Shown here piece by piece: positions 1,309-30,604 of a stretch of 38,785 nt of DNA; the first letter of the stretch is position 1, and every line of letters starts with the position of its first letter. Both the position numbers and the translations under genes were made by a program. Under the pieces are notes generated by a model, which was not told the DNA's origin, made no database searches, and was given only the letters and a program-made list of their open reading frames with translations. The stretch comes from Patescibacteria group bacterium (GTDB lineage: Bacteria > Patescibacteriota > WWE3 > 9FT-COMBO-53-11): contig DATDSA010000010.1 of assembly GCA_035291485.1 (NCBI GenBank), positions 1 through 38,785 of the forward strand. Reading direction: 5' to 3'.

Positions 1309-1352
1309 GAGGATTTGATAATCGGGTAGTCTTTTTATTATCCTAGAGGAGT

Positions 1353-1430
1353 AATGTACGGCTCGCTAAAGCGAACCTAGATTCGGCGAATGGCCGAATA
1401 ACGGCTCGCTAAAGCGAACCTAGCATTTTG
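1353..1430 (+). repeat. Two forward copies of the dispersed hairpin element, with a third hairpin between them
   Basis: The identical 23-mer ACGGCTCGCTAAAGCGAACCTAG occurs at 1358-1380 and 1401-1423. Between them lies the perfect hairpin ATTCGGC-gaatg-GCCGAAT (1381-1399). The second copy continues as TAGCATTTT. Confidence 0.85.
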
Positions 1431-1440
1431 AGAAAACAAA

Positions 1441-1650
1441 ATGAAAGAACAGCACGACCACAGCCAACCCACCCACACCGCCGGTTGCGACGCCTGTTCC
1501 TACGTCGCCGAGGTTCACGCCCACGGCGATGACGAAGCGGTAGACGCGCTGGTGCAGGATCTGGCGGCGCACAACAAGGCCGTCCACAACCAGGACACCG
1601 ACCCCGAAGCCATCAAAGATCCCGTTCGCGCCAAGATGAAGACCCTGTAG
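1441..1650 (+). CDS. Small DUF1059-like protein
   Basis: 69-aa ORF. The pattern C-x2-C followed by DDEAVDALVQDLAAHNKAVH resembles the DUF1059 layout. The next gene starts 4 nt after its stop. Confidence 0.5.
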   Translation: MKEQHDHSQPTHTAGCDACSYVAEVHAHGDDEAVDALVQDLAAHNKAVHNQDTDPEAIKDPVRAKMKTL

Positions 1651-2566: not shown

Positions 2567-4252
2567 GTGCCAAGGCGAAAGTTTCCGAAACTCGTCTTCG
2601 TTTCGGGTGGTGTGCTCTCCGGGTTAGGCAAAGGAATCACCACCGCATCCGTTTCTCTCCTCCTCAAATCCCGCGGCTATAAAGTCACCGCCATCAAGTG
2701 CGACATGTATCTCAATATCGACGCCGGCACGATGAACCCCGTTGAACACGGGGAGGTCTTCGTGACCGATGACCGGGCCGAGACCGACCAGGATATCGGC
2801 CACTACGAACGCTTTCTGAACGAGGACCTGCCGGGGAAGAATTACATCACCGCCGGCCAAGTCTACTACGAGGTCCTCCAGAGAGAACGGCGGCTGGAGT
2901 ACGGGGGAAGAACGATCGACGCCTACGAGGAGATCCCACCGGAGATCATCCGCCGAATAAAACAGGCGGCCCAGGGGTACGAGATCGCGGTGATCGAGCT
3001 GGGCGGAACGGTCGGTGAGTACCAGAACATCATGTTCTTCGAGGCCATCCGCCGGCTGAAGATCAAGGACCCCAGCTCGACCCTGCTGATCCACGTCGGC
3101 TACCTGCCGCTCCCGCCGACCCTGGGAGAGCCCAAATCGAAACCGATCCAACAATCCATTCAAGAACTGAACTCGCTCGGCCTTCGGCCGGATTTCGTTG
3201 TTGCCCGCTCGGAGAAACCGATCGACTTGAAGCGGAAGGAGAAAATCGCTTTCTCCGCCGCGATCGATCCCCAGGACGTAATCTCAAACCCCGATGTCAG
3301 CCCGGTCTACCGCGTCCCGCTGGTGCTGGAGGAGCAGGAGCTGGCGCGAAAGATCCTGCAAAGGTTCGGCTTGCGGTCCCGCGGCCGAAAACTCGGCGAA
3401 TGGAAGAATCTCATCAAAAGGATCGAAGGGGCTAGAAAACCGATCAGGATCGGTATGGTCGCCAAGTACATCTCCTCCGGCGATTTCACCCTGGAAGATT
3501 CCTACATCTGCGTCAACGAAGCGATCAAGCACGCCGCTTGGGAGCAAGGGCTGGATCCCCAGCTGGTTTGGATCGATTCCGAGAAGCTGGAGGAGATGGG
3601 AAAGAAGGAGTTTGAAGAAGCGCTCGCGGGCTTGGACGGGATGATCGTCCCGCAGGGGTGGGGGAGCCGGGGAACGGAGGGGAAGATCGGGGCGATCCGA
3701 TTCGCCCGAGAAAACAAAATCCCATACCTGGGGCTCTGTTTCGGAATGCAGATGGCGGTGGTCGAGTTCTCCCGCCACGTGCTGGGATTGAAGGACGCCC
3801 ACACCGCCGAGGCTGATCCCAAAACCAAGAACCCGGTGATCCACGTCATGCCGAACCAGGAGAAATACCTCCAGAATAGGCAGTACGGCGGGACGATCCG
3901 GCTCGGCGCTTGGAAGTGCGGGATTGAGCCCCGGACGCTACTGCGCCGGATCTACGACCGAGGGGTGGTCAGCGAACGGCACCGCCACCGCTACGAGCTG
4001 AACAACAAGTACCGCCAGCTGCTGGAGAAAAATGGAATGAGGTTGTCCGGATTATCGAGCGATAAGGAGCTGGTGGAAGCGATTGAGTTGGATCAAAAAA
4101 TTCATCCGTTCTTTCTGGGGGTACAATTCCATCCGGAATTAAAATCCCGGCCGTTGGCACCCCACCCTATTTTTAGGGAGTTTATGCGCGCCGCGAGCGG
4201 CGACGGAGGTAGAGACCGACCTCAAAAGCGAGGGCGGCGAAAAGCAGATTGA
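2567..4252 (+). CDS. pyrG: CTP synthase
   Basis: N-terminal FVSGGVLSGLGKGITTAS is present. The glutamine amidotransferase domain shows GLCFGMQ and HRHRYE motifs. 561 aa. Confidence 0.95.
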   Translation: MPRRKFPKLVFVSGGVLSGLGKGITTASVSLLLKSRGYKVTAIKCDMYLNIDAGTMNPVEHGEVFVTDDRAETDQDIGHYERFLNEDLPGKNYITAGQVYYEVLQRERRLEYGGRTIDAYEEIPPEIIRRIKQAAQGYEIAVIELGGTVGEYQNIMFFEAIRRLKIKDPSSTLLIHVGYLPLPPTLGEPKSKPIQQSIQELNSLGLRPDFVVARSEKPIDLKRKEKIAFSAAIDPQDVISNPDVSPVYRVPLVLEEQELARKILQRFGLRSRGRKLGEWKNLIKRIEGARKPIRIGMVAKYISSGDFTLEDSYICVNEAIKHAAWEQGLDPQLVWIDSEKLEEMGKKEFEEALAGLDGMIVPQGWGSRGTEGKIGAIRFARENKIPYLGLCFGMQMAVVEFSRHVLGLKDAHTAEADPKTKNPVIHVMPNQEKYLQNRQYGGTIRLGAWKCGIEPRTLLRRIYDRGVVSERHRHRYELNNKYRQLLEKNGMRLSGLSSDKELVEAIELDQKIHPFFLGVQFHPELKSRPLAPHPIFREFMRAASGDGGRDRPQKRGRRKAD

Positions 4253-7200
4253 CGAGCGGCATTCCGGTGGCGGGGAGAACTTCTCCTTCGTCTTCCTCAC
4301 CCAGGACATCCTGGTCGTTGTTGGTCACCGTACAGGTCTTTTCCTCACCGACCTTAATATCTCCAACACAGTCTTCCGAGTAGAAGGCGGTGTATCCGGC
4401 GACCGGCTCTTCCGTGACTTCATACTGACCGGCGTCGAGGTCAATGACGGTTCCGCCCTCGTTCCCGAAGAAAGCGATCGGGTCGGGATTCGTCGCGGCG
4501 ATAGACAGAGTAAAATCGCTAGCGATCTTGGTACCGGTGCTGTTGTTGACCACCCGCTTGATGACGGTGAGCTTGGGAGCAATATCGTCGTTGGTGATGG
4601 TGCAGGAGATGTTTTCGCCCTCATTCAGGGTAACGGTACCACCGAGAACCGAGGGACAGTCATCCTCACGCTCTTCACCGCCGGTGAGGGAAACGAAGGC
4701 GTACCCGAAGAGACCCGCTTCATTCAGCGCGTAGGGAGTGTTAGCGTCAACTTCCAGGGTCTGACCGGAGGTCACCGCGGTATCTCCAATGGTCAGGCCA
4801 AAATCATTCGGCCCCGCTGTACCACCGTCGAGATTGATGACTTCTTTGTAGAGGGTAATCGTGGGAGCGGTGTCGTCGTTGGTCACGGTGCAGGTTTCCG
4901 AACCACCGTTCGGAATAAACACTTCGCTGCAGTTGTCGTAGCTGGTTCCGTAACCATCCGCCGACTCTTCAGTCACGGTGTAGGTTCCCTGAGGAACGGG
5001 TATTTCCTTCAACGCCCCGTCATCCAAGAACGGTCCGGGTTCCAAACCGTTGACTTGGAAGTAGAAATCGGAACCATTCGCGTCGCCGCCGTTGTCGTTG
5101 ACGACAATTTTCTTCACAATTAGTGTTCCCGGCTGATCGTCGTTGGTGATGGTGCAGGTCTTGGACTCCCCGGGAAGAAGAGTGATATTCCCCTGCGCAT
5201 CGCAATCCTCACCCCAGGTAGAAGGAGCGTAGCCAAAAAGCGTGTCTTCGCTGACCGTGTAAGAACCCGCATCCACGAAATGAGAACCCCAGCTGGATTG
5301 AACAGCATCGATGTAGACGGAAAAATCATTTTCGGTTGCGGTGCCACCGTCATCGTTGGGAAGAACTTTAACCAAAGTGAGGGTGGAAGTTTCGTCATCG
5401 TTTAGGATGGTGCAAGTCATCGTTTCCCCCGGCAAAAGAGCTACTTCTCCTTGCGCGTTGCAATCCCCACCCCAAGAAAAGGGCGTGTAACCAGGAAGGG
5501 TGTCTTCACTAACTGTGTAGGTACCGGCATCTACTTGATGGGATCCCCAGCTGGATTGAACAGCATCGATGTAGACATTAAAGTCATTCTCGGTTGCAGT
5601 TCCGCCGTTATCGTTGGGGAGAATCTTCGCCAAAATAAGCGTCGCTTCCTCATCGTCGTTTACAATCGTACAGGTGACATCCTCAGCCAATCCTAGGGTA
5701 ATAACATTCCCGTTTAACTGCCCACCATCACACTGCCAATCGCTGGGAGTGTAGCCGGAAGGACCACCCGATTCGGACAAGGTATAGGGCTCTCCCGCCA
5801 AAACAGCCTGCGGTCCAACGGTCGGTCCTGACCCAGAAAAACCATCAGTTCCGGTGGCCTGTAACGTCCACTGATTCTCGTTGGCTTGACCACCATCATT
5901 GTTGGTCACTGTTTTGACCAAAGTAAGGGTAGGAGCGACATCATCATTGGTGATGGTGCAGGTTTTTTCGTCGCCGTAGGCCAAGCTAACGTTACCGTCC
6001 TCACAACCTTCACTAAACGTCACAAGGTAACCGGAGGGGTCGATTTCTAAGAAATCTTCCTCAAAAGATTGACTACCAACTTCTAATGTATACGTAGTCT
6101 CCCAAACCCTAAGAACATCATTAATATAAAGATCAAAATTATCTTCGGTTGCAGTACCGCCATTATCGTTAGGAAGCTCTTTGTAGACAGTTAGAGTCGG
6201 CAACTGGCCGTTAGTAAAAGTGCAAGTTATATCACCGCCCGCAGTAAGATCAATGGAATTAGGGTTAATCTCGTTGTTCACCCCATCCGAGCAGACTGCA
6301 CTAATCGGCGCCCAGCCTGTAACCGGATATTCAATTAGAGAATAGTTTCCCGGCAAAAGGTCAGGAAAAGTGTGGGGAGTTTGTTCATCGATCAACGAAG
6401 TAGAACCAGCACCACTCAAAGTAAAGTCAAAAGACTGATTTGAACCAGAAGGTATGGTAATTTTATCAACCGTGATTGAGCCGGGGTTAATTTCATTGGT
6501 GAAAGTGCAAGTGACATCCTCACCTTCAGGCAAGGGCAGTACAACGCTGTCATTCGATCCAGTTCCAATTGGATCACCATCTTCATCCAAACAGGCAACC
6601 GAGGTTGAATAGCTGGAACTGGTAACCTCGCTAAGCGTGTAACTATCTGGAGTAAGATTTCCAAATGTGTAATCCCCACCATCGATAATGTTGCTGGCAG
6701 TACCAACCAGGGAACTGTCGGAGGAGAGTTCCAAGTTAAAGTCCCAGGTACTTGAATCATCCGGAACAACATCCTTAACTACCGTTACGGTAGCGGGCGA
6801 GACTACCGCGTCAGCCGAAAGAGATTTATCAGTAGCTCCCAAATTACCAAGATCATCGTCCCCGTCATCATTAACATCGGCGTACCAACTTATTAAGCGC
6901 ATGTGGTATGGGGAACCATGGATGCCTCCCGCGGAATTTCCGATTCCCCAGTCAAGTTTAGAACCAAGATGACCACCCCAAGCCAAAATTGCGGTTGAGT
7001 TAGTAGCGGAAAAGGTTATATCGATGGTTGTCTCGGCCGCATCATCCGCCAAATCCCCTTGGGTGTTGTAGGCCATACTTGAAATTGCCCCGTTCCACAT
7101 GGACATCACCCGCTCACCAGCCGGCAATGCATTAAAACTAGTGGTGGGTTGACCGAAAACCGGAGATCCGGCAGAACTGGGAGCAGGAATTGCAAAAGTA

Positions 7201-7655
7201 CTAGAAGGAGCAGACCCATCGGTAACTCCAACGACCCCATCGGTAGGATCAACGGTTTCGGTCAAGTGCCCAAAGTAACCGTGGTCTTCCAATCTTTGAT
7301 ACTGGGTAAGAAAGTCAATCGCGTGGGCTCCGCTGTGTTTGATGTCGTAACCGATTGTTAAAGTGATAGGCTCACCGATCGGCAAATCCGTCAAAACAGC
7401 TCGATAGGATTGAGAGTATCCCTCTATTAAGTGAGAGTTTGAGCCTCCGGCATTACCGTTAAACCAAATCGGAGGAACATTGGGCAAAGCGGCAGAACCG
7501 TTACGCATCTGATCGAGATCAACATTTGAACTAAGGTCATCACCATCAGCGTAAACCGGTACGGGGAGATACGAGAAAATCCCAATAACATACTGGGACA
7601 GAAGAGTCAGCGAGGTAAAGAGCGAGAATAATTTTTCGCGCGTTTGCGTACGCAT
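4182..7655 (-). CDS. LPXTG-anchored cell-surface protein with about nine tandem beta-sandwich repeat domains
   Basis: A signal-peptide-like N-terminus is present. Nine modules each end in C-T-x-T/V/L-N-D/N-D, for example TCTITNDD, with NDNGGTAxxxDF cores. The C-terminus is LPATG plus a hydrophobic helix plus RRRSRRA. Confidence 0.85.
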   Translation of the reverse strand: MRTQTREKLFSLFTSLTLLSQYVIGIFSYLPVPVYADGDDLSSNVDLDQMRNGSAALPNVPPIWFNGNAGGSNSHLIEGYSQSYRAVLTDLPIGEPITLTIGYDIKHSGAHAIDFLTQYQRLEDHGYFGHLTETVDPTDGVVGVTDGSAPSSTFAIPAPSSAGSPVFGQPTTSFNALPAGERVMSMWNGAISSMAYNTQGDLADDAAETTIDITFSATNSTAILAWGGHLGSKLDWGIGNSAGGIHGSPYHMRLISWYADVNDDGDDDLGNLGATDKSLSADAVVSPATVTVVKDVVPDDSSTWDFNLELSSDSSLVGTASNIIDGGDYTFGNLTPDSYTLSEVTSSSYSTSVACLDEDGDPIGTGSNDSVVLPLPEGEDVTCTFTNEINPGSITVDKITIPSGSNQSFDFTLSGAGSTSLIDEQTPHTFPDLLPGNYSLIEYPVTGWAPISAVCSDGVNNEINPNSIDLTAGGDITCTFTNGQLPTLTVYKELPNDNGGTATEDNFDLYINDVLRVWETTYTLEVGSQSFEEDFLEIDPSGYLVTFSEGCEDGNVSLAYGDEKTCTITNDDVAPTLTLVKTVTNNDGGQANENQWTLQATGTDGFSGSGPTVGPQAVLAGEPYTLSESGGPSGYTPSDWQCDGGQLNGNVITLGLAEDVTCTIVNDDEEATLILAKILPNDNGGTATENDFNVYIDAVQSSWGSHQVDAGTYTVSEDTLPGYTPFSWGGDCNAQGEVALLPGETMTCTILNDDETSTLTLVKVLPNDDGGTATENDFSVYIDAVQSSWGSHFVDAGSYTVSEDTLFGYAPSTWGEDCDAQGNITLLPGESKTCTITNDDQPGTLIVKKIVVNDNGGDANGSDFYFQVNGLEPGPFLDDGALKEIPVPQGTYTVTEESADGYGTSYDNCSEVFIPNGGSETCTVTNDDTAPTITLYKEVINLDGGTAGPNDFGLTIGDTAVTSGQTLEVDANTPYALNEAGLFGYAFVSLTGGEEREDDCPSVLGGTVTLNEGENISCTITNDDIAPKLTVIKRVVNNSTGTKIASDFTLSIAATNPDPIAFFGNEGGTVIDLDAGQYEVTEEPVAGYTAFYSEDCVGDIKVGEEKTCTVTNNDQDVLGEEDEGEVLPATGMPLVNLLFAALAFEVGLYLRRRSRRA
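5135..5655 (-). repeat. Recent tandem duplication of one ~261-bp domain-coding unit inside the surface protein gene
   Basis: TLILAKILPNDNGGTATENDFNVYIDAVQSSWGSH... and TLTLVKVLPNDDGGTATENDFSVYIDAVQSSWGSH... are adjacent. By eye they are roughly three quarters identical at protein level, with long identical DNA runs. Confidence 0.8.
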
Positions 7656-7773: not shown

Positions 7774-8742
7774 ATGCCAATGCGCACCTGCGAATTCGTC
7801 TCGCCCAAACACCCCGACAAGCTCTGTGATTTCATCGCCGATTCGATTTTGGACGGTTTCTTGGCCGGTGACCCAAAGAGCCGGGTGGCGGTGGAACTCC
7901 TCGGCGGCCACGGCCGGGTCTTCGTCAGCGGGGAGGTGACCAGCGCCGCGGACGTGGACGTCGAAGCGCTGGTGAGGAAAACCGTCGGCGAGGACTACCA
8001 GATCGTCGTCAACATTTCCAAGCAGAGTCCCGAGATCTCGCGGGGAGTGGACACCGGCGGGGCGGGGGACCAGGGAATAATGATGGGCTACGCCACCAGC
8101 GAAACCGAGACCTCTATGCCGTTGGAGTACGAGACCGCCCGCAAACTCTGCCAGGACATATATAAGGAGTATCCCTACGACGGAAAAACTCAAGTAACCA
8201 TAGAGAGTAACGGAAGTAACAAGAGTAACCAAAGTGACTACCGAGTGACAACCGTGGTAGCGAGCTTTCAAAATACCAAAACCAAAGAACTGGAAGAGCT
8301 CGTTCGTTCCCTGATCAAGAGCGACTTATACCTTATTAATCCGGCGGGGGAATGGAACCTCGGCGGTTTTGATGCGGATTCGGGATTATCCGGGCGGAAG
8401 ATCGTCATCGACAACTACGGCCCCGAGATCGGCGTGGGCGGGGGATCGTTCTCCGGCAAGGACCCGACCAAGGTCGACCGAAGCGCCGCCTACATGTGCC
8501 GGCGGATCGCCGTCGACCTCCTCAAGAAACACAAAGCTAAGAAGGTGAAGACCAAGCTGGCCTACGCCATCGGGGTGAAGGACCCAGTGATGGCGGTCGC
8601 CGAGATCGACGGTCAAGAAACCCCGATCGAGGGCTACGACGTCACGCCCCGCGGAATTATTGAGTTGCTGAAACTCGACCAACCCATCTACGCCGAAACC
8701 GCTCGCTGGGGACATTTTGGGCGAAACTTTTCTTGGAGTTGA
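7774..8742 (+). CDS. metK: S-adenosylmethionine synthetase, compact 322-aa form
   Basis: Motifs KHPDKLCDFIAD, GAGDQGIMMGYA, GGGSFSGKDPTKVDRSAAY and the C-terminal WGHFGR are present. Confidence 0.9.
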   Translation: MPMRTCEFVSPKHPDKLCDFIADSILDGFLAGDPKSRVAVELLGGHGRVFVSGEVTSAADVDVEALVRKTVGEDYQIVVNISKQSPEISRGVDTGGAGDQGIMMGYATSETETSMPLEYETARKLCQDIYKEYPYDGKTQVTIESNGSNKSNQSDYRVTTVVASFQNTKTKELEELVRSLIKSDLYLINPAGEWNLGGFDADSGLSGRKIVIDNYGPEIGVGGGSFSGKDPTKVDRSAAYMCRRIAVDLLKKHKAKKVKTKLAYAIGVKDPVMAVAEIDGQETPIEGYDVTPRGIIELLKLDQPIYAETARWGHFGRNFSWS

Positions 8743-8746
8743 TGAC

Positions 8747-8782
8747 CAAAATGCTAGGTTCGCTTTAGCGAGCCGTCCAATA
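8747..8782 (-). repeat. Hairpin element copy, reverse orientation, 5 nt after the metK stop
   Basis: CAAAATGCTA-GGTTCGC-TTTA-GCGAGCC-GTCCAATA is the reverse complement of the copies at 1358-1430. Confidence 0.85.
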
Positions 8783-8826
8783 CGGTCGCGGGTTTTCCTG
8801 GGGCTAGGTGCTAAAATTTTCCCAGC

Positions 8827-8860
8827 ATGGACGGCCGCCTGCGGCGACCTAGCATTTTCG
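8827..8860 (+). repeat. Hairpin element copy, forward
   Basis: ATGGACGG / GGCCGCC-TGC-GGCGACC / TAGCATTTTCG. Confidence 0.85.
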
Positions 8861-8869
8861 CATTACTCA

Positions 8870-8905
8870 AATGGACGGCCCGGCTGTGCCGGACCTAGCA
8901 TTGTT
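8870..8905 (+). repeat. Hairpin element copy, forward, directly upstream of ychF
   Basis: AATGGACGG / GGCCCGGC-TGT-GCCGGACC / TAGCATTGTTCG. Confidence 0.85.
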
Positions 8906-8918
8906 CGCTTCGCTCACA

Positions 8919-10025
8919 ATGTCATTATCCGTCGGCATCGTTGGTTTACCCAACGTTGGAAAATCAACTCTTTTTAATGCGCTCTTGAAAAAGCAGGTCG
9001 CCTACGTCGCCAACTTCCCCTTCGCCACCATCGAGCCCAATGTGGGGATTGTCCCGGTCCCGGACCCCCGCCTCGACCAGCTCGCGCTCATAATCAAAGA
9101 GAGCGAGAGGATGGAAGATCTGCCGCCGAAAGTCCCCGCCACAGTTGAATTTTTGGACATCGCCGGCCTCATCGCCGGCGCCCACAAGGGAGAAGGGCTG
9201 GGAAACAAGTTCCTCGCCCACATCCGGGAAACGAACGTGGTCTGCCACGTCCTACGCGTCTTCACCGACCCCGAAATAATTCGGGAAGGAAGCGCCGATC
9301 CCCGCAGCGATTTCGAAACGGTGGAGACGGAGCTGAAGCTGGCCGATCTTCAAACGTTAGAGAAGCAGGCCGAACCAAAAGGAACAACCTCCAAAGAGGA
9401 CGCAATCCGCTGGCGGGCCGTTTCCAAGCTGAAAGAAGCTCTTCGAAAAGGAACCGCCGCCCGAGAGGTCCCCCTCGACGAAGGAGAACAGGAAGCCGCC
9501 CGGGCCCTCTCTCTGCTCACCGCCAAACCGATCCTGGTGGCACTCAACGTGGACGAGGCCGATCTCAAAAAAACCGAAGAGTCGGAGGAGAGATATTCCC
9601 AGGAGCTGGGAGTAGCACGAAATCAGGTCGTCACCATCTGCGCCAAGACCGAGGCCGAGCTGGCCGATCTCTCCCCGGAGGAACAGGCGGCTTACCTTAA
9701 GGAACTGGGAGTAGGGGAATCGGGGTTGGAGAAACTCATCCAACGAGCCTACGCCACCCTGGGGCTGATCAACTTCCTCACCGCCGGCACCATCGAGGTC
9801 CGAGCCTGGACGATCCAAAAGGGGACAGCCGCCCAACAGGCCGCCGGGGTCATCCACAGCGACTTCGAGAAGAGCTTCATCAAGGCGGACGTCGTTGACT
9901 TCGAAACCTTTGTGGAAGTGGGCGGTTGGCAGGCGGCGCGGGAGCAGGGAAAAGTCCGGTCGGAGGGCAAGGAGTATCTCGTCCAAGACGGAGAAGTGGT
10001 CGAGTTCAAGATCGGCGCCTCCTAG
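8919..10025 (+). CDS. ychF: Redox-regulated ATPase YchF
   Basis: MSLSVGIVGLPNVGKSTLFNAL P-loop is present. The C-terminal TGS-like region contains IHSDFEKSFIKA. The start is set at ATG 8919 because YchF proteins begin a few residues before GIVGLPNVGKS. Confidence 0.9.
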   Translation: MSLSVGIVGLPNVGKSTLFNALLKKQVAYVANFPFATIEPNVGIVPVPDPRLDQLALIIKESERMEDLPPKVPATVEFLDIAGLIAGAHKGEGLGNKFLAHIRETNVVCHVLRVFTDPEIIREGSADPRSDFETVETELKLADLQTLEKQAEPKGTTSKEDAIRWRAVSKLKEALRKGTAAREVPLDEGEQEAARALSLLTAKPILVALNVDEADLKKTEESEERYSQELGVARNQVVTICAKTEAELADLSPEEQAAYLKELGVGESGLEKLIQRAYATLGLINFLTAGTIEVRAWTIQKGTAAQQAAGVIHSDFEKSFIKADVVDFETFVEVGGWQAAREQGKVRSEGKEYLVQDGEVVEFKIGAS

Positions 10026-10029
10026 AGGT

Positions 10030-10058
10030 TTGACAGCCAACGCCGGCACCCCTATCAT
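10030..10058 (+). promoter_or_regulatory. Near-consensus sigma70-type promoter for the small ORF
   Basis: TTGACA (10030-10035), a 17-nt spacer and TATCAT (10053-10058), followed by AGGAGG at 10071-10076. Confidence 0.6.
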
Positions 10059-10081
10059 AGGAGCAGAGGAAGGAGGAAGAC

Positions 10082-10309
10082 GTGGGCTACGTTTACTTCG
10101 TCAGCTACGTGATCATGAGAGGGACCCTGGACGGAGGAAGGAACGACACCTTCGGGAACACGCGGTTGGTGCTCCCGCGGAAGATCAGCTCGATCACTCA
10201 GATCATCCAGGCCGAGAGATCGATCAGTCGGAGGAGGGAAGCGGTGATCCTCTTCTATCAGTACCTGGGGAAGGATACCAAGAAAAGAAAGAAACGATCT
10301 CTCAACTAG
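10082..10309 (+). CDS. Small basic hypothetical protein (75 aa), stand-alone transcription unit
   Basis: GTG start lies 5 nt after AGGAGG. The gene has its own promoter upstream and its own terminator downstream. No family recognised. Confidence 0.65.
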   Translation: MGYVYFVSYVIMRGTLDGGRNDTFGNTRLVLPRKISSITQIIQAERSISRRREAVILFYQYLGKDTKKRKKRSLN

Positions 10310-10317
10310 AACCACAC

Positions 10318-10346
10318 GCCGATGGACCAAAATCCCATCGGCTTTT
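10318..10346 (+). terminator. Rho-independent terminator of the small ORF
   Basis: GCCGATGG-accaaaatc-CCATCGGC is followed by TTTT. Confidence 0.7.
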
Positions 10347-10357
10347 CATTTGAGAAA

Positions 10358-10396
10358 AGCGAAAATGCTAAGTCGCCGCAGGCGGCCGTCGATTTG
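10358..10396 (-). repeat. Hairpin element copy, reverse orientation
   Basis: Its reverse complement ACGGCCGCCTGCGGCGACTTAGCATTTTCGCTTTTCTCAAATG is nearly identical to the copy at 8831-8873. Confidence 0.85.
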
Positions 10397-10583
10397 CTTT
10401 CTTCTCTCAAAAACGAGTAAAAATAGGGCGGGCGAGGTTTTCCTCTGCGGATCTCCTCGCCCTGAAAAGTTCAGAGATGTTTTCTCCCGTAAAATCGCTT
10501 CCCAAACGTCTCGAATTTTGATAGAATAAATAGGTTTGGTTTGCTCTGCCCCTAGCCACTAAACCCTAGTTTCCCTAATCGAG

Positions 10584-10620
10584 AAATGGACGGCTCGCTA
10601 ACGCGAACCTAGCATTTTCG
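10584..10620 (+). repeat. Hairpin element copy, forward, directly upstream of gyrA
   Basis: AATGGACGG / GGCTCGC-TAAC-GCGAACC / TAGCATTTTCGC. The gyrA ATG lies 22 nt after the T of TAGCAT. Confidence 0.85.
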
Positions 10621-10630
10621 CTTTGCTCAA

Positions 10631-13186
10631 ATGAAAGAAGAAAAAACACCCGAAATTCCCGAATTGCCCCAAGGAAAAATCCTCACCGTCCCCGTCACGG
10701 GGGAGATGGAAAAAGCCTATTTGGATTATGCGATGAGCGTCATCGTCGCCCGGGCCCTGCCGGACGTCCGCGATGGGCTGAAGCCGGTCCAGCGCCGCAT
10801 CATCTATGCGATGCACGAGCAGGGAATGAGCCCGACCACCAAATTCTCCAAATGCGCCGCGGTGGTTGGGGAAGTGATGAAAAAATTCCATCCCCACGGA
10901 GACATCTCCATCTATGATGCGCTCGTGAGAATGGCGCAGAATTTCTCGATGCGCTACCCCCTGGTCGACGGCCAGGGCAACTTCGGTTCGATCGACGGTG
11001 ATTCGCCGGCGGCGATGCGATATACCGAGTGCCGCCTCGCTCCCTTGACCGATGAACTCTTGGCGGACATTGGAAAGGAAACCGTTCTCTTCGGGCAAAA
11101 CTATGACGCGACTACGACCGAACCGAACGTTCTTCCCGCGGCAGTGCCGAACCTCCTCCTGAACGGTTCTTCCGGGATCGCGGTCGGAATGGCCACGAAC
11201 ATCCCCCCCCACAATCTGGGAGAGATTTTGGACGCCCTCGTGGCGATGGTGCAAGCGGCGAAAGTCTCCGGAGAAGTTGACCAGCACCAGGCCGACTACA
11301 GTCTTACGGTCGAGGACCTGATGCAGTTCGTTCCCGGCCCGGATTTTCCGACGGCCGCCTTGGTTTACGGGCAGGACGAGATCGCCCGGGGCTACGCCAC
11401 CGGCAAGGGGAGTGCCGTGATGCGCGCCAAAACCGAGATCACCGAGGAAGAAGGCCGGAATCGGATCATCGCCACCGAGCTGCCTTATCAAGTTAACAAG
11501 GCGACCCTCCTCGAAAGGATTGCCCAACTCGTAAAAGACGGGAAAGTAAAGGGGATCGGCGGCCTGCGGGACGAATCCGACCGCGACGGAATTAGGGTCG
11601 TCGTTGATCTCAAGAAGGAAGCTCGACCCCAGGCGGTCCTGAACTATCTCTTCAAGCACACCGAACTCCAAACCACCTTCCACATGAACATGGTCGCGCT
11701 TGTTGATGGGCAGCCGCAGACCCTGACGCTCAAAACCATCCTCGAAGAGTTTCTCAAACACCGCTACCAGGTCGTCCTCAAAAGGATAAGATTCTTACTC
11801 GGACAAGCCAAGCAACGTGAGCACATTCTGCAGGGATTAAAGATCGCCCTGGACCACCTCGACGAGGTAATCGCGACCATCAAGAAATCCGCCGACACCG
11901 ACGACGCTCGGACCAACTTGATGAAAAAGTTCGGCCTCACCGAAATCCAATCTCAGGCCATCCTGGACATGCCGCTCAAACGCCTTTCCGCCCTGGAGCG
12001 CGAGAAGATCGAGCAGGAGCTGAAGGATATCCTGGAAGAGATCAAACGCCTGGACCTGATAATTTCCAAACCGCAAAATATCTACCGGGAAGTCGAGAAA
12101 GAGCTCCAGGAAGTTAAAGAAACCTACGGTGATGAGCGCCGCACCAAAATCTTCAAGAAACGGATTGGGGAATTCAGCGAAGAGGAGTTGATCCCGGAAG
12201 AAGACGTCATTATCACGCTGACGGAGGATGGATACATCAAGCGCCTGCGGGAAGAGACCTACAAACGGCAGGGCCGGGGAGGAAAGGGCGTGGTCGGAAT
12301 GAAGACCAAAGAGGAGGATACGGTGGAACAGATCCTCCCTACCTCGACCCACGACGAGGTTCTCTTCTTCACCAACAAGGGGCGAGTCTATAAGCAGAAG
12401 GCTTACGAATTGCCCGAGGCAACTCGCCAATCAAAGGGCACGGCGATAGTCAACATTCTCGACCTGGAATCGGAGGAAAAAGTCGTGATCATGCTCCGCA
12501 TTCCCAAGAAAGACCTCAGACCAATCCATCTTTTCATGGCCACCGACCACGGCACTGTCAAGAAGACGGCGCTGACCGATTTTGAAAACATCCGCCGGAC
12601 GGGGATCATGGCGATCCGCCTTAAGCCCCAGGAGAATCTCATCTGGGTCAAACCGACCTCCGGTGAGAACGATATCGCCCTGGTGACCAGAATGGGCCAG
12701 TCCATCCGCTTCAAAGAGGCGGACGTCCGCTCCATGGGCCGAGCGGCGGCCGGCGTCCGCGGCATCAGAATCGGCAAAGGCGATGAAGTGATTGCGACCG
12801 AAGTGGTTGTCAATCCGAAGGACTACCTCCTCACGCTCTCCGAACGCGGGGTCGGCAAGCGCACCCGTCTCGCCGAGTACAAGACCCAGGGCCGGGGCGG
12901 TTCCGGTATCCTCACTCACCGCGTCACCGCCAAAACCGGTAAACTGGTCAGCGCCCGGATCGTCGAGGAAGCCAAACAGAACGACATGCTTCTTACCTCC
13001 CGCCGCGGCCAGGTGATTCGGCTTTCGCTCAAACAGGTGCCGATCCTGGGCCGAGCCACCCAAGGGGTTTATCTGATGCGCTTGAACGAAGGGGATTCCG
13101 TCTCGGCGGTTGCTTTCATGGAAGAGGGAGAGGAACCGGATGTGTTGCCTCCGAAAGAGGGAGAGGAAGAAGAAAAGCAGGAGTAA
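10631..13186 (+). CDS. gyrA: DNA gyrase subunit A
   Basis: Motifs [14 protein letters not shown], the active-site region AAMRYTE, and C-terminal beta-pinwheel repeats with QGRGGKG are present. 851 aa. Confidence 0.97.
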
Positions 13187-19332: not shown

Positions 19333-19449
19333 CGGTTTTGGGTAGATGGGGGAGTAAGCCGTTTTGCAATCTCTTGAAATGTGATTGTTCGCACTTTGTT
19401 GATTATATGAACCACAGTTTCAATTTACCGGACTCCCCTTCCTGATGTC

Positions 19450-19535
19450 AATAGGACGGCCGCTTGGGCGACCTAGCTATTGATAGCGATTCTCCGAATC
19501 GCGTCCAATAGGACGCCCTCCGGGTCCTACACGGG
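19450..19535. repeat. Three abutting hairpin-element copies (forward, reverse, forward)
   Basis: Copy 1 is AATAGGACGG/GGCCGC-TTGG-GCGACC/TAGCTA (19450-19479). Copy 2 is GATA/GCGATTC-TCC-GAATCGC/GTCCAATA (19481-19510, reverse type). Copy 3 is AATAGGAC/GCCC-TCC-GGGT/CCTAC (19507-19531). Copies 2 and 3 share GTCCAATAGGAC. Confidence 0.7.
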
Positions 19536-23857: not shown

Positions 23858-26380
23858 TCACCCTTCCTCGTCGTCCTGCATCGCCGGTGGCGCGGTTGGC
23901 TCCTCCGCACCGGCGGCGACCGAAGGTTCGACCACGGTCTCACCCTTCTCCTCGGCAATCGCCATCCCCAGACTGAACACCCGCTCCGACCAACGCTTAA
24001 TCTTATCCTCAATCTCCGCCGCATCGCGCCCGTAGATCTCGCGAGAGTGCTCCACCGCAGCCTGGCCCTGATAGGTTTGGCCTTCGGGAGGAGCCAGGGA
24101 TATCGCCGAAAACGGCTTGGAGGTCATTCCGTCCACCAGCAGCTTGAGATAGATATGGTATTTATCAAGAGAGATCAGATCTTCCGAAGTGAAGTAGGGC
24201 AAGAATTCTTTCTCCAAAATGGCGGCGTCCGGCGCTCCCACCGAAAACAGCACCATCGTACCAATGTTTCCAAAAACCGCATCCTGCATGCTCTCCGGCA
24301 GTTGGGCCGTGTACTGATGGGTGAGGTGGAGATTAAGGCGATACTTCCGGGCCTCAGAAAGGATCGAGGCAAAGGAGCCGGAAGCAAAGTTCTGAAACTC
24401 GTCCGCGTAGAGGTAGAAATCGCGCCGTTCGGCTTCGGGAATGTTTACCCGCTGCATCGCGGCAAAATTGATCCGAGAAATCATCAGCGAACCCAGGAGA
24501 TTGGCATTGTCTTCCCCGATCTTTCCTTTAGAAAGATTGATCAGAAGAATCTTGCCCTCATTCATGATCTCATCGAGGTTCAGCGAGGAGGTGCGTTGAC
24601 CGACGATATTGCGGATCGTCGAGGACGACAAAAAGCGGCCGACTTTGTTTTGGATCGGGGCCACCGCTTCGGTGTGGAGGCGGGGGTTGGTCATCATCTG
24701 GGTGTATTCCTTCTCCCAAAACTCCCGCAGCACCGGGTCTTTCATTTTGTAGACAATGTACTTCTGGTAGTTCTTGTCGGAGAGAAGCCGGGTAATTCCA
24801 AGGAGGGTCGTCCCGGGAACCTCTAAGAGAGTCAGGATCGCGTTGTTCAAGAGATACTCCAACCGCGGTCCCCAGGAAACATCAATGAAGTGTTTCTTAA
24901 AGGCATCCAGGAGACCGGAAGCGAGCAAGTTCTTTTGGGAAGTGTCCTGCAGTTCCAGAAGATTGAGACCGATCGGGCGCTCGGTATCGGAGGGATCAAA
25001 ATAAACAACGTCGTTCACTCTTTCCGCCGGTACAAAATCGAGCAGCTCTTTAACCAAGTCACCGTGCGGATCCAGGACCGCCACTCCTTCCCCGTTCTGC
25101 ATATCCTGCACAATCATGTTCTTAAATACCGTGGTCTTACCGGTACCGGTTTTTCCGACCAGATACATATGCTGCCGCCGATCTAGGCGCTTAATTCCAA
25201 ATTTCGCAAAACGCTCCCGGAAAGTCGTCTGCGCAAAATAAGTGCAGTCGGAAGTGGGAAGATTCGCGGGCGGTTCCCCCTTTTTGTAAGTCGCCCAAGC
25301 AATGGCGGGAGTCTGCACGGAAACATTCGGCAGGTGGAAGATCGAAGCAAGCTCCGCGGTGTCCAAGACATAGGTTTTATCAGGAAATTCGCGCCGGATT
25401 ATTTTGTCTTTGAAATCTCCGATTCCTTCGGCGGGGGCAACCTGGATAAAAGAGTTCAAACTGGCCGAAGAGAACTGCCGGAAGGAAGCGGCAGCTCCCC
25501 GCAAAAGCTCGGCGCAGTTCTCAGGCTCCAGGGCCGCCGTAAAAACTCTCACGGTCGTTTCAAAACCCACTCGGGTCAGCTTGTCCTCAATCATCTTCAA
25601 ATCCAGTTCCTGCCCGGCCGAGAGCCGAGGCATATCTTGTTTGGGAGGAAGCGGTTTGGAGGGGGGCGTCAACAGGGAGGGATTGAGAAGCTGCTTGATA
25701 GCATAGGGAATCATTCCTCCCAATTCCTCGGTGACCCCGGTGCCGATCTCAGAAATACCCAAACCCATTTTCTTGGTTCCCGTCCGCACGTCATTGACGT
25801 ATTTGTGGCCCGCGGCCTGCCAAACATCCGGAACGGGGCGGACCAGGATCTGGAGCCAGATCCGCTCTCCCTCTTTCACCTCGCTCATCGAGCCGGTCAC
25901 CGCCGCCAGCGGGTCGACTTCGAAATCCCGGAAAGTCTTCGTGGGGAAGAAAGAATCCTTGGAGAGGATCAGACTGCCGCCGCAGGTGGAGAGACCGGAA
26001 AGATCGGTCTGCATGTAATCGTGCTCCATCAACCGGAGCTCCGCGGAAGGATACTGGGCGTAGATCTGTCCTTCGACAAATTCCTGCAGATGCTTCGGGC
26101 AGCGCACGTAGAAGTGGATGCCGGAAGAATCGGCGGCAATCTCAAAGGAGATGTGCTCCTGATGGGTGGGGTCGGCACGCAGCAGCCCGTGCAAGGAAGC
26201 AAACATTTGTTCCGAGGCCAGCGGCAGAAGCTCGTTCGCCTTCGGAACCCGAATCTCCATCAAGACAGTTTCCTCAAACTTGCGGGGGGACGAAGAGGCA
26301 CGACCGGACCGGGCCGAACGGACGGCCCCCATTACGGAAAGACCAAACAAACCAAAAACCAACGGTAGTAGTGTAATCAC
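23858..26380 (-). CDS. Membrane-anchored P-loop ATPase of the TraD/VirD4/TrwB (FtsK-HerA superfamily) type with an unrecognised ~380-aa N-terminal region
   Basis: GTG start. The N-terminal helix is MITLLPLVFGLFGLSVMGAV. Walker A is LVGKTGTGKTT and Walker B is FYLYADEFQNF, followed by RKYRLNLHLTHQ. 840 aa. Confidence 0.8.
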   Translation of the reverse strand: MITLLPLVFGLFGLSVMGAVRSARSGRASSSPRKFEETVLMEIRVPKANELLPLASEQMFASLHGLLRADPTHQEHISFEIAADSSGIHFYVRCPKHLQEFVEGQIYAQYPSAELRLMEHDYMQTDLSGLSTCGGSLILSKDSFFPTKTFRDFEVDPLAAVTGSMSEVKEGERIWLQILVRPVPDVWQAAGHKYVNDVRTGTKKMGLGISEIGTGVTEELGGMIPYAIKQLLNPSLLTPPSKPLPPKQDMPRLSAGQELDLKMIEDKLTRVGFETTVRVFTAALEPENCAELLRGAAASFRQFSSASLNSFIQVAPAEGIGDFKDKIIRREFPDKTYVLDTAELASIFHLPNVSVQTPAIAWATYKKGEPPANLPTSDCTYFAQTTFRERFAKFGIKRLDRRQHMYLVGKTGTGKTTVFKNMIVQDMQNGEGVAVLDPHGDLVKELLDFVPAERVNDVVYFDPSDTERPIGLNLLELQDTSQKNLLASGLLDAFKKHFIDVSWGPRLEYLLNNAILTLLEVPGTTLLGITRLLSDKNYQKYIVYKMKDPVLREFWEKEYTQMMTNPRLHTEAVAPIQNKVGRFLSSSTIRNIVGQRTSSLNLDEIMNEGKILLINLSKGKIGEDNANLLGSLMISRINFAAMQRVNIPEAERRDFYLYADEFQNFASGSFASILSEARKYRLNLHLTHQYTAQLPESMQDAVFGNIGTMVLFSVGAPDAAILEKEFLPYFTSEDLISLDKYHIYLKLLVDGMTSKPFSAISLAPPEGQTYQGQAAVEHSREIYGRDAAEIEDKIKRWSERVFSLGMAIAEEKGETVVEPSVAAGAEEPTAPPAMQDDEEG

Positions 26381-26469
26381 CGCTTTAAACGAGAAACTTA
26401 ATTTCCAACACCTTAAGCATACCTAATTCTACATCAGGGGTGCAATACCTTTATAGGTTGAAACTAGAT

Positions 26470-26497
26470 GGGCCTGGGCTAAATTTGGCCCAGGCCC
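26470..26497. other. Perfect 10-bp GC-rich hairpin upstream of the ATPase operon
   Basis: GGGCCTGGGC-taaatttg-GCCCAGGCCC. There is no adjacent T-run on either strand. Confidence 0.5.
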
Positions 26498-26554
26498 GAA
26501 GAAAGGAGAGAGACTACCAGTAGTTTAACAGTTAATAGTTTATAGTCAATAGTT

Positions 26555-26596
26555 GGAAAAAGATGGGAGCCCCGTTGACCGAAGTCATTGGGGCTC
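26555..26596 (-). terminator. Terminator-like hairpin after the 48-codon ORF
   Basis: On the minus strand, GAGCCCC-(16-nt loop)-GGGGCTC is followed by CCATCTTTTT. Confidence 0.45.
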
Positions 26597-26619
26597 GTTT
26601 CGTGTTGGGACGGCTATCG

Positions 26620-26766
26620 GGTGTAGCGGTAGAGTCGGGAGGTGACCTTGGGATCCATCTGCGAAGGTTGGGAGACCTGCGACAGACGGGCCTGGGTGTC
26701 CTTCTGCTCTCCGGCGTACAGCGAAAGCCGTTCCTTGACCTGGAGATCAAGAGCTGATTTCTTCAT
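26620..26766 (-). CDS. Possible 48-aa small protein (below the ORF-track cutoff)
   Basis: My own translation gives MKKSALDLQVKERLSLYAGEQKDTQARLSQVSQPSQMDPKVTSRLYRYTR. ATG is preceded by AGAGAGGAATGTG. A hairpin plus T-run follows. Confidence 0.4.
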
Positions 26767-26896
26767 CACATTCCTCTCTGATCTAGGATAGTTTAAATAT
26801 ACCAGACTATAGGATAAAAGTCAAGCCCAGGCCGACCTACCCCAATCCAGATAAACAGCGGATTTTTTCTCCCCGCCAAATAAGCTAAAATGGTTC

Positions 26897-26934
26897 CGTG
26901 GACGGCTCAGCTTCGTTGAACCTAGCATTTTTAA
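26897..26934 (+). repeat. Hairpin element copy, forward, directly upstream of the HAD hydrolase gene
   Basis: CGTGGACGG / GGCTCAGC-TTC-GTTGAACC / TAGCATTTTT. The ATG lies 22 nt after the T of TAGCAT. Confidence 0.8.
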
Positions 26935-26944
26935 AGAAACAAAA

Positions 26945-27601
26945 ATGAAAGCAGTAATCTTTGACCTCGATGGGACCCTGATCAACAACGAGTGGATCTA
27001 CGACCAGGCTTACTGTGTGGTCCTGAAAAGTTTGAACATTTCCTGCGACCAGCTCAATCACATCCCCGGAATCGGGCTTCAGGAAAACTGGGAAAGAATG
27101 GTTAATGATCTGGGCATCAAAAAAACCTCCGCCGAACTCGCCGCCCAGACTCGAGATGCCTACCTGCAAAATATCAACAAAGTCAAACTGAGGGATGGGG
27201 CCCGGGAGTTAATCTTCGATCTCAAAAGAAAACACACCCTGGCCATCCTCGGTACCTCCACCGGCAAAGAAACAGCAACCCAAGTCCTCCAGCAGATCGG
27301 GGCCGAAAAATTATTTGATTTCACCGTTTTCGGGGACGAAGTGGAGAACAAGAAACCGGCTCCCGATATCTTTCTTAAAGCGATGGACAAAGCGGGAATT
27401 CTGCCTCGGGAGACCATTGTGATCGAGGACTCGGCGGCCGGCGTCGAGGCCGGCAAGGCGGCCGGAGCCAAAGTGATTGCCATCAAGACGGATTGGTACA
27501 CCCGCGACCAGCTCTTTCGGGCCGATTTTATCGCCGATGATTTCGCCCACATCCTCGACCTTATCAAAAACGAGAAGACGCTCGATCACTCAACCGGGTA
27601 G
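26945..27601 (+). CDS. HAD-superfamily hydrolase (beta-phosphoglucomutase-like subfamily IA)
   Basis: Motifs MKAVIFDLDGTLINNE, GTSTGKE, KKPAPDIFL and IEDSAAGVEAGKAAG are present. Confidence 0.85.
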   Translation: MKAVIFDLDGTLINNEWIYDQAYCVVLKSLNISCDQLNHIPGIGLQENWERMVNDLGIKKTSAELAAQTRDAYLQNINKVKLRDGARELIFDLKRKHTLAILGTSTGKETATQVLQQIGAEKLFDFTVFGDEVENKKPAPDIFLKAMDKAGILPRETIVIEDSAAGVEAGKAAGAKVIAIKTDWYTRDQLFRADFIADDFAHILDLIKNEKTLDHSTG

Positions 27602-27690
27602 TGATGGAACAAAGATCCTGAGCAGAGCGAGATCACTTTATCTCCGAACACCGTGAGGAGACAAAGCTACCGAGCCGAAGGTGAGGTGGC

Positions 27691-27720
27691 TTTACAACCT
27701 CCCCACCTTGTATATATAAT
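27691..27720 (+). promoter_or_regulatory. Sigma70-type promoter for the RRM protein gene
   Basis: TTTACA (27691-27696), an 18-nt spacer and TATAAT (27715-27720). This implies a leader of about 80 nt. Confidence 0.55.
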
Positions 27721-27807
27721 AAACAGAGTTAGGGACCTGCGAGAGTGCTGACCCCGTTAGTTGGACCGCCTCTCTGTGTGCTCCCTTCGAGAGGTGGTGA
27801 AAATCAC

Positions 27808-28185
27808 TTGAGTCAAAAATTATACGTTGGCAATCTTCCCTGGGCAACCACGGGTGATGATCTTAATAAGATGTTCGCCGAGGTTGGCAAGGTGGAGGAT
27901 GCCGTAATCATCAGCTACAAAGACACCGGCCGCTCCAAGGGTTTCGGTTTCGTGACGATGAAAGACGACGACGCCGCCGAAGAAGCAGTTAAGAAATTCA
28001 ACGGCTTCGAGTTGGAGGGACGTGCCCTGATCGTCGACAAAGCCCGCCCAATGCGCGAAGAAGGTGAAGGTGGTGGAGAATCTCCCGCTGGCGGTGAAAC
28101 TCCGGCTGAAGGAGAAGCTCCTGCTACCGGTGAAGCCCCCGCCGCTGAGGAAACTCCGGCTGCTGAAGAAACTCCCGCTGCTTAA
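27808..28185 (+). CDS. RRM-type RNA-binding protein with an acidic Pro/Ala/Glu repeat tail
   Basis: TTG start follows GAGAGGTGGTGA. RNP-2 is LYVGNL and RNP-1 is KGFGFVTM. The tail is GETPAEGEAPATGEAPAAEETPAAEETPAA. Confidence 0.85.
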   Translation: MSQKLYVGNLPWATTGDDLNKMFAEVGKVEDAVIISYKDTGRSKGFGFVTMKDDDAAEEAVKKFNGFELEGRALIVDKARPMREEGEGGGESPAGGETPAEGEAPATGEAPAAEETPAAEETPAA

Positions 28186-28217
28186 GCGGGACGTTTTAAA
28201 GCTGTTATAGTTCTAAT

Positions 28218-30418: not shown

Positions 30419-30551
30419 GGCGAGCTTTTTTATAGCCCCTCGACTACGCTCGGGACACCCTGAGCGAAGCCGAACGGGTGGCAAGGGCTCTAATCTATTG
30501 TACCGAAAAATGGCAGTGGTATTCCAGAGAAACAAAGTTTTTTGCTGGTGC

Positions 30552-30583
30552 AAAAAAAGCCGACCTTTTTCCAAAGATCGGCA
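30552..30583 (-). terminator. Rho-independent terminator after CDS 30605..31048
   Basis: On the minus strand, GCCGATC-tttggaaaaa-GGTCGGC is followed by TTTTTTT. Confidence 0.6.
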
Positions 30584-30604
30584 GGGTTCTCTTACTGCTC
30601 TTTC

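Follow-up and report, generated by a model that had tools for sequence, protein, structure and literature searches.

The 38,785-nt stretch of DNA analyzed here (contig DATDSA010000010.1 of assembly GCA_035291485.1, obtained from a Patescibacteria group bacterium of the WWE3 lineage; hereafter the window) carries a short element in front of gyrA, ychF and further genes, which an initial annotation had taken for a portable promoter/leader cassette. Our results indicate that this cassette probably represents a subfamily of a non-autonomous, dispersed repeat of 42–48 nt in WWE3 (Katanobacteria), which would be transcribed within the leader and is probably not a promoter. The leader half of the earlier proposal was retained, the element being an insertion that carries an A/T-rich leader together with an ATG, whereas the promoter half was not. 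Comparison with close relatives shows the repeat to be an insertion, and it represents a putative mobile element resembling repetitive extragenic palindromic (REP) sequences and MITEs (miniature inverted-repeat transposable elements). Its notable features are the apparent targeting of start codons and the regeneration of an ATG in a lineage of the candidate phyla radiation. As far as literature searches show, the repeat has not been described for WWE3 or other bacteria of this radiation.

The contig originates from groundwater metagenomes. Reading of the individual sites in the window revealed nine copies, and a search with a covariance model (filters off) returned exactly these nine in the 38.8 kb. 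In relatives, 54 copies were recovered by covariance model R1 within 225 kb, giving 63 copies together with those of the window. An exact-pattern scan covering species-representative genomes yielded matches in three metagenome-assembled genomes of candidate division WWE3/Patescibacteria (MEUW01, LDXK01, and JBBDZL01), in addition to three likely chance matches. Within the window, CCTAGCAT occurs six times, compared to 0.5 expected occurrences, and the single CTTAGCAT belongs to copy E. The copies were as follows:

Copy A0, 1349–1399, plus strand (covariance model, sequence reading): Shine-Dalgarno-like GAGGAG and ATG 1354–1356; core 1358–1380; second hairpin of a different subtype (ATTCGGC-GAATG-GCCGAAT, 1381–1399).
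Copy A, 1400–1443, plus strand (covariance model): head-to-tail with A0; core 1401–1423; second hairpin formed by CATTTTG (1424–1430) and CAAAATG (1437–1443); ATG 1441 is the start of a 69-aa DUF1059 gene.
Copy B, 8746–8785, minus strand (covariance model): intact CCTAGCAT at 8751–8758; located directly past the metK stop codon (8740–8742) and oriented into the metK 3' end.
Copy C, 8822–8870, plus strand (covariance model): core 8831–8852; starts at the ancestral ychF ATG 8827–8829.
Copy D, 8871–8921, plus strand: in tandem with C; core 8875–8898; second hairpin formed by CATTGT (8899–8904) and ACAATG (8916–8921); ATG 8919 is the true ychF start.
Copy E, 10347–10398, minus strand (covariance model): core 10368–10389, with CTTAG replacing CCTAG; ATG 10349 opens a 15-codon open reading frame (ORF) only, which overlaps the terminator of a small plus-strand gene.
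Copy F (gyrA), 10581–10633, plus strand (sequence; covariance-model score 43.7 bits): upstream X AAATG 10584–10588, including the ancestral gyrA ATG 10586–10588; core GACGG-hairpin-CCTAG 10589–10612; X' CATTT 10613–10617; 3' arm AAATG 10629–10633, including the present gyrA ATG 10631.
Copy H, 19447–19484, plus strand (covariance model): different subtype with arms CAATAG/CTATTG; no adjoining start codon; approximately 120 nt upstream of a XerC-like integrase gene.
Copy G, 26893–26947, plus strand (covariance model): ancestral GTG 26898–26900; core 26902–26925; second hairpin formed by CATTTTT (26926–26932) and AAAAATG (26941–26947); ATG 26945 is the start of a HAD gene.

Evidence for insertion was obtained from contigs of relatives (designated by L-numbers), the syntenic ones of which were found via YchF homologs featuring 77–90% protein identity. 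An empty gyrA site with an identical 5' untranslated region (UTR) is present in nine of them (L029, L030, L032, L033, and L036–L040). In L032, L033, and L036–L040 it reads ...GGTTTGGTTTGCTCTGCCCCTAGCCACTAAACCCTAGTTTCCCTAATCTAAT-ATG-GTAGAAGAAAAACC (in short form, ...CCCTAATCTAAT-ATG-GTAGAAGAA), whereas the window reads ...CCCTAATCGAGAA-ATG-(GACGG...CTCAAATG)-AAAGAAGAAAAAAC, with 45 extra bases right past the ancestral ATG 10586–10588. Likewise, copies C and D, which lie immediately 3' of ATG 8827 in the window, are missing from ychF in L028, L029, L031, L033, and L034, the start in L029 being GGTAAAATTACCCC-ATG-TCTTTATCC. Three further filled/empty pairs of the ATG subtype were identified (L017 4375 versus L007, L013 2456 versus L011, and L006 1524 versus L018), and in five out of five such pairs the junction is immediately past (A)ATG, to which X' is complementary. 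Within 72 kb of sister-lineage DNA only the equivalent of copy B was found, indicating that the window lineage gained C, D, E, and F; copy B, which carries a duplicated metK 3' end on its flanks, is common to the sister lineages L033, L036, and L038. A scan of metagenomes with the gyrA leader as anchor returned five further contigs, all of them empty-site contigs of the sister lineage, and no polymorphism within a population was found in it. Conversely, family members occupy sites in relatives that are free in the window, namely upstream of the gyrA promoter in L032 and L033. Within ychF codon 7, a family member is present in L030 (2740–2830) and L035 (2300–2390). These insertions are accompanied by a target duplication of 22–34 nt, which spans the −10 box and the ATG and rebuilds a CATAAT box 7 nt upstream of the new ATG. 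All three arms (X, X', and X) differ in concert between the two species (TGTCGGAAT/ATTCCGACA in L030 versus AGTTGGAAT/ATTCCAACA in L035).

Each unit follows the layout X - GACGG - hairpin 1 - CCTAG - X' - loop - X. In hairpin 1, which is G+C-rich, the stem differs in sequence among copies with compensating changes; its third pair is a conserved C-A mismatch, for which the other strand would give G-U. The arm X', which begins immediately past CTAG, corresponds to the reverse complement of X, the commonest subfamily featuring (C)AAAATG or (A)AAATG as X and CATTTT(G) or CATTT(T) as X'. Together with the downstream X it forms an A/T-rich second hairpin (CATTTTG-loop-CAAAATG), and it pairs likewise with the upstream X (in most cases AAATG), which is located immediately 5' of GACGG, thus forming an outer helix. 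Among 29 copies, pairs 1 to 7 of the second hairpin are of the Watson-Crick type in 29, 29, 29, 28, 28, 24, and 21 copies, respectively, pair 7 being G-C (10), T-A (7), A-T (2), or C-G (2). Arm variants include CATTGT/ACAATG and CATTTTCC/GGAAAATG, and other subtypes swap both arms jointly (CAATC/GATTG, ATTCGGC/GCCGAAT, CTATTCGC/GCGAATAG, and TTATCCAGCACT/AGTGCTGGATAA). In a gap-free alignment of 17 copies, the outer helix and hairpin 1 featured 74.9% paired cells versus 33–46% in slid controls; for all 63 copies, the corresponding values were 85.6% and 29–55%. The covariation score of the 63 copies (0.478) compares to at most 0.085 in slid controls and was attained by 0 of 500 shuffles. The outer helix is joined to hairpin 1 by a 3x3 internal loop, GAC facing TAG, which is near-invariant among copies, and the core flanks ACGG and ACCTAG are invariant in the 17-copy alignment and near-invariant in the 63 copies. 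These data show the architecture of the repeat and the covariation of both helices.

Units also occur in head-to-tail arrays of 42–44 nt (L026 6853–6975, L011 1168–1291, and window 1349–1443), in which the core hairpin alternates with the second hairpin and the number of units varies among species; at one orthologous array site, three units in MEUW01 compare to one in LDXK01. Furthermore, the copies show reassortment between core hairpin and 3' module: copy D has its 3' module, but not hairpin 1, in common with L026 3394, and copies A0, A, and B have a common hairpin 1 and differing 3' modules. Regarding the 3' module as a plain target duplication fits L013 2933, L030, L035, and copy B; this view was rejected for copy F and L017 4375, whose module moves along with the core. 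As a separate observation, copies C and E (8827–8880 and 10340–10393) are 87% identical over 54 nt in inverted orientation and flank ychF and a small inserted gene (approximately 1.5 kb), a layout resembling a composite transposon.

The relation of the repeat to gene starts was evaluated from the distance between the T of TAG and the A of the following ATG, which had been reported as 20–23 nt for every forward-type copy with an intact 3' box. This spacing applies to six of the seven TAGCAT copies in the window, that is, 1421 to 1441 (20 nt), 8850 to 8871 (21 nt), 8896 to 8919 (23 nt), 10610 to 10631 (21 nt), 26923 to 26945 (22 nt), and, on the minus strand, 10370 to 10349 (21 nt). The word 'every' was incorrect, since the first ATG of copy B is 41 nt away, and the T in front of gyrA, previously given as 10609, is really located at 10610. 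Since an ATG is expected in any span of four positions about 6% of the time, six out of seven is far beyond chance. Across the window and its WWE3 relatives, 24 of the 35 CAT-type copies are followed, at 20–23 nt, by an ATG with which an ORF of 60 aa or more begins. The fixed distance is explained by CAT and ATG being the two arms of the second hairpin. Among the six ATGs in the window, four are real gene starts, namely those of the DUF1059 gene (1441), ychF (8919), gyrA (10631), and the HAD gene (26945), and ATG 8871 is merely the initial triplet of the following tandem unit. The Pfam profile of the HAD protein begins at residue 1, GyrA and DUF1059 are backed by Pfam, and ychF starts with MSLSVGIVGLPNVG. 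As described initially, the leaders are A/T-rich and lack GGAGG, and three of the four real genes start with ATGAAAG (1441, 10631, and 26945).

Consequences for translation were deduced from 25 gene-start copies. In 16 of these, the short ORF opened by the old start terminates in the range of −14 to +1 relative to the new ATG (ATGA overlaps in seven of the 16), and in three copies the old-start ORF continues in frame into the gene. Copy D is an example of the latter, being in frame with ychF, and the copy at L007 7364 provides the tail of an upstream gene. Because the old-start ORF mostly ends close to the new ATG, it is plausible that the latter is reached by termination and re-initiation. 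According to the proposed mechanism, a unit would insert directly 3' of an existing start codon, the old codon remaining as the upstream X, and would terminate in a new ATG, whereby the gene retains its reading frame; insertion of more units at the new ATG would give rise to the in-register head-to-tail arrays. The element would be transcribed from the upstream promoter of the gene itself as part of the leader, and the old start, with its own Shine-Dalgarno sequence or at a leaderless 5' end, would direct a short ORF into the element, followed by re-initiation at the new ATG. Movement probably proceeds via a folded single strand or by template switching at the short X repeats.

A more far-reaching interpretation, which we regard as possible and put forward tentatively, describes the repeat as a start-codon-homing, self-repairing mobile element that lands directly past a start codon and regenerates this codon at its terminus. 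The 3' arm X' would either guide the element to its complementary target or be copied from it, and leaderless or tightly coupled starts would become termination/re-initiation starts past a short element-encoded ORF. If true, selfish DNA could colonize the nearly spacer-free genomes of the candidate phyla radiation while the genes survive. The concerted differences of the three arms between L030 and L035 hint at a templated mechanism that is independent of a transposase.

Several observations weigh against the interpretation as a mobile, non-promoter repeat. Flanking duplications have no fixed length (3–5 nt to 22–34 nt), unlike those of classical transposition, and, in at least one pair (L006/L018), the 'empty' site may represent the footprint of a deletion instead of a never-occupied site. 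About half of the sites are common to several species, which could mean selection for function. No transposase or other mobilizing gene was found in 336 kb of DNA by tblastn with two Y1/IS200 sequences, a search that is uninformative for whole genomes; its lowest E-value (0.05) came from L010, a Methylococcaceae locus that is unrelated. Compared to shuffles, single copies have unremarkable folding energies, with z-scores of −1.1 (F), +0.4 (G), and −3.0 (L014), only the A0+A pair folding strongly (z = −6.4). The argument for structure is therefore based on covariation. Finally, the window spacer of 16–18 nt between TGGACG and TAGCAT, together with the fit of TAGCAT to TAnnnT, may allow for weak promoter activity.

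Regarding known mobile repeats, likeness to the REP/REPIN-RAYT system (PMC3116915, PMC3337134) comprises a short, imperfectly palindromic, G+C-rich sequence flanked by conserved bases, many extragenic copies, persistence within a lineage combined with polymorphism between relatives, and a probable action as folded single strand. With nine copies in 38.8 kb and 86% paired cells, the WWE3 repeat is a short, G+C-rich, multicopy extragenic palindrome in the sense of REP. However, its flanks are GACGG and CCTAG instead of the GT[AG]G head of REP, its units are mostly single or head-to-tail rather than inverted doublets as in REPIN (B and C being the only close inverted pair in the window), and it has a second hairpin of target-matching sequence and lands at start codons. 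The GT[AG]G head was reportedly described by Nunvar in 2010 and Ton-Hoang in 2012. The tblastn search of 336 kb with the two Y1 sequences found no RAYT gene. Insertion sequences of the IS200/IS605 family (IS608, ISDra2) have two different end hairpins, a Y1 transposase, and a tetranucleotide guide 5' of the hairpin. They may resemble the WWE3 repeat in being inserted 3' of a short specific sequence that is repeated at the element's own 3' end, in hairpins recognized on one strand, and in a guide-like element sequence complementary to the target. In contrast, the WWE3 repeat has one core hairpin and a complementary arm of 5–12 nt located 3' of it, and is occasionally accompanied by long duplications, with no transposase found in the 336 kb.

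Correia elements and other bacterial MITEs (PMC2649163, PMC10969869, PMC2229807) are likewise small non-autonomous insertions beside genes; they are co-transcribed, fold in RNA, and can alter the expression of neighboring genes, which probably applies to the WWE3 repeat as well. Within this group, a 'portable promoter' has precedent. Correia elements are 100–155 bp long, are bounded by terminal inverted repeats of 26 bp, duplicate a TA target, and contain an integration host factor (IHF) site (PMC2649163, PMC10969869, PMC2229807), whereas the WWE3 element has 42–48 nt, no fixed duplication, and no convincing promoter. It also differs from MITEs, its X/X' arms having only 5–8 bp and its flanking repeats ranging from ATG/AAATG up to 22–34 nt. 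Palindromic elements of Rickettsia and hairpin-forming or double-hairpin elements of mitochondria (PMC2800124) are likewise tiny palindromic selfish elements that colonize very compact genomes and are readable as part of an ORF; however, sequences and hosts are unrelated, and those elements are not known to target or regenerate start codons. Overall, the WWE3 repeat appears to behave like REP, MITE, and Correia-type repeats, yet seems to miss defining features of each.

Alternatively, the repeat could be a cis-acting RNA module under selection in 5' UTRs or between cistrons, its mobility being secondary; we consider this unlikely. In this model, the ATG would be free when X' pairs with the upstream X and hidden when it pairs with the downstream X, and a protein or RNase site would be provided by hairpin 1 with the invariant internal loop GAC/TAG. 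Both alternative pairings covary, and the predicted lowest-energy folds use the outer helix in F and the second hairpin in G and L014. The occupation of sites in several species would fit such a role, and every gene-start copy is on the same strand as its gene. G-U pairs exceed A-C pairs in the outer helix on the sense strand (36 versus 5), but this excess may merely reflect purine-rich upstream flanks. On the other hand, the second hairpin is weak and A-U rich, the associated genes (gyrA, ychF, HAD, and DUF1059) have no common function, close relatives manage without the element, other subtypes are antisense to flanking genes (L013 2933), and copies B and E face no gene. In addition, Rfam 15 gave no match for the whole window at gathering thresholds and none at E-values up to 1 over positions 8700–10,700; tRNA and tmRNA genes were likewise not found in the window.

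The assumption of a portable sigma-70 promoter, with TGGACG as −35 box, TAGCAT as −10 box, and leaders of 7–10 nt without Shine-Dalgarno sequence, appears quite unlikely. It is favored by the fit of TAGCAT to TAnnnT, by the constant distance to the ATG, by the spacer of 16–18 nt in all seven TAGCAT copies of the window, and by the precedent of small mobile repeats that create promoters, such as Correia elements (PMC2649163). However, the initially suggested −35/−10 pair matches the consensus at only 4 + 4 of 12 positions and lacks a TG extension, whereas native promoters are of the TGnTAnnnT type. A consensus scan (at least 9 of 12 matches to TTGACA and TATAAT) called none of the element copies, while calling the native gyrA and small-gene promoters. 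The spacer, previously given as 15–18 nt, varies between 15 and 19 nt over the 35 CAT-type copies (15 nt in 15, 16 nt in 10, 17 nt in 3, 18 nt in 4, and 19 nt in 3). Moreover, the CAT of TAGCAT covaries as a stem arm: the bases past TAG change together with the downstream arm and are replaced wholly in other subtypes. The compensated hairpin in the spacer would be without a role in a promoter, the relatives' genes exist without the element, and copies B and E, as mentioned, would have no gene to serve. Many copies occupy intra-operon spacers, beginning 3–27 nt past the stop codon of the upstream gene on the same strand. The comparisons also show putative native promoters upstream of element-bearing genes:

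10499–10527, plus strand: native gyrA promoter, TTCCCA-17-TAGAAT, with TG-extended −10 box.
8809–8817, plus strand: native ychF TG-extended −10 box TGCTAAAAT, 9 nt before the ancestral ATG 8827.
26886–26891, plus strand: native HAD −10 box TAAAAT, 6 nt before the ancestral GTG 26898.

The gyrA −10 box is kept as TGnTAnnAT in all relatives, irrespective of the presence of copy F, which is located approximately 60 nt downstream of this promoter within the leader; the 5' UTR upstream of the insertion is conserved and is the same in element-free relatives. For ychF, the position of TAAAAT 9 nt before the ancestral ATG represents a leaderless-type arrangement, and homologous −10 boxes are found 6–7 nt before the start in L029, L030, and L031 and 12 nt before it in L033. 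The HAD box, likewise in a leaderless-type arrangement, is also present in the MEUW01 ortholog (L026). In both ychF and the HAD gene, the ancestral start codon is now situated at the 5' edge of the element. Given these conserved upstream promoters, a transcription start approximately 7 nt past TAGCAT would be unnecessary, and the repeat is probably not a promoter. As an additional feature of the region upstream of the gyrA promoter, a hairpin (GGGCGAGG-N17-CCTCGCCC, 10428–10462) without T-run on the plus strand is kept in all relatives examined (L029, L030, L032, L033, and L035).

Start regions were also evaluated in 28 element-free genes of the window. A TAnnnT box is located 5–9 nt before the start in 7 out of 28 genes, compared to 3.5% at random positions, and the TG-extended form (TGnTAnnnT) in 5 out of 28, compared to 0.4%; examples are 7774 and 28218 and, on the minus strand, 23844, 34036, and 36722. 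A Shine-Dalgarno-like site was found in 8 out of 28. The boxes in front of element-free starts show that starts lacking Shine-Dalgarno sequences are native and ancestral and were not imported by the element. Leaderless-type promoters account for some of them, and in gyrA a leader without Shine-Dalgarno sequence is present. The TGnTAnnnT boxes 5–9 nt before starts point to presumably widespread leaderless mRNAs in the WWE3 genome.

That the repeat encodes a conserved leader peptide or a short upstream ORF (MDG...) is very improbable, and this reading was rejected: at unit lengths of 37–48 nt the remainder of the repeat falls into each of the three reading frames, no peptide beyond MDG is conserved, and conservation tracks base pairing rather than codons. 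In its favor, ATGGACGG (M-D-G) is conserved at the 5' edge, and most of the short ORFs terminate close to the main ATG.

Interpreted as a probable mobile repeat, what looks like a regulatory motif in front of gyrA, ychF, and further housekeeping genes would mislead promoter and regulon inference from such motifs in uncultured members of the candidate phyla radiation. Gene callers may also choose the wrong start, as illustrated by the ORF listed from 8871 rather than 8919, the 48-nt unit of copy D placing ATG 8871 in frame with ychF. If the density in the window holds genome-wide, the family would account for approximately 1% of a genome of approximately 1 Mb. It would insert at the sole position of a gene at which a unit with a terminal ATG is harmless. 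Its insertions would provide a natural test of initiation without Shine-Dalgarno sequence in these organisms, that is, by leaderless mRNA or re-initiation, and their presence or absence between close strains could mark strains of WWE3 populations.

Regarding neighboring features, a small ORF of 75 aa without Pfam match (GTG 10082, plus strand; region 10030–10350) is located between ychF and copy E and features a TTGACA-17-TATCAT promoter, an AGGAGG Shine-Dalgarno sequence, and a terminator consisting of a hairpin and a T-run. At its position, the sister lineages L028, L032, L033, and L035 carry a 268-aa ATP-cone/Mrr_cat gene, and nothing is present in L029 and L030. A 9.8-kb island that seemed to be missing in L003 proved to be a false alarm, the L003 contig being colinear with window positions 24918–30651. 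On the minus strand, an ORF of 1157 aa (4182–7655) is composed of repeats of 258–288 nt, and its homolog in L028 showed faint-to-weak Ig-like Pfam matches. At 28057–28197 on the plus strand, an 18-nt tandem repeat encodes the Glu/Pro/Ala/Gly/Thr-rich tail that ends a 146-aa gene.

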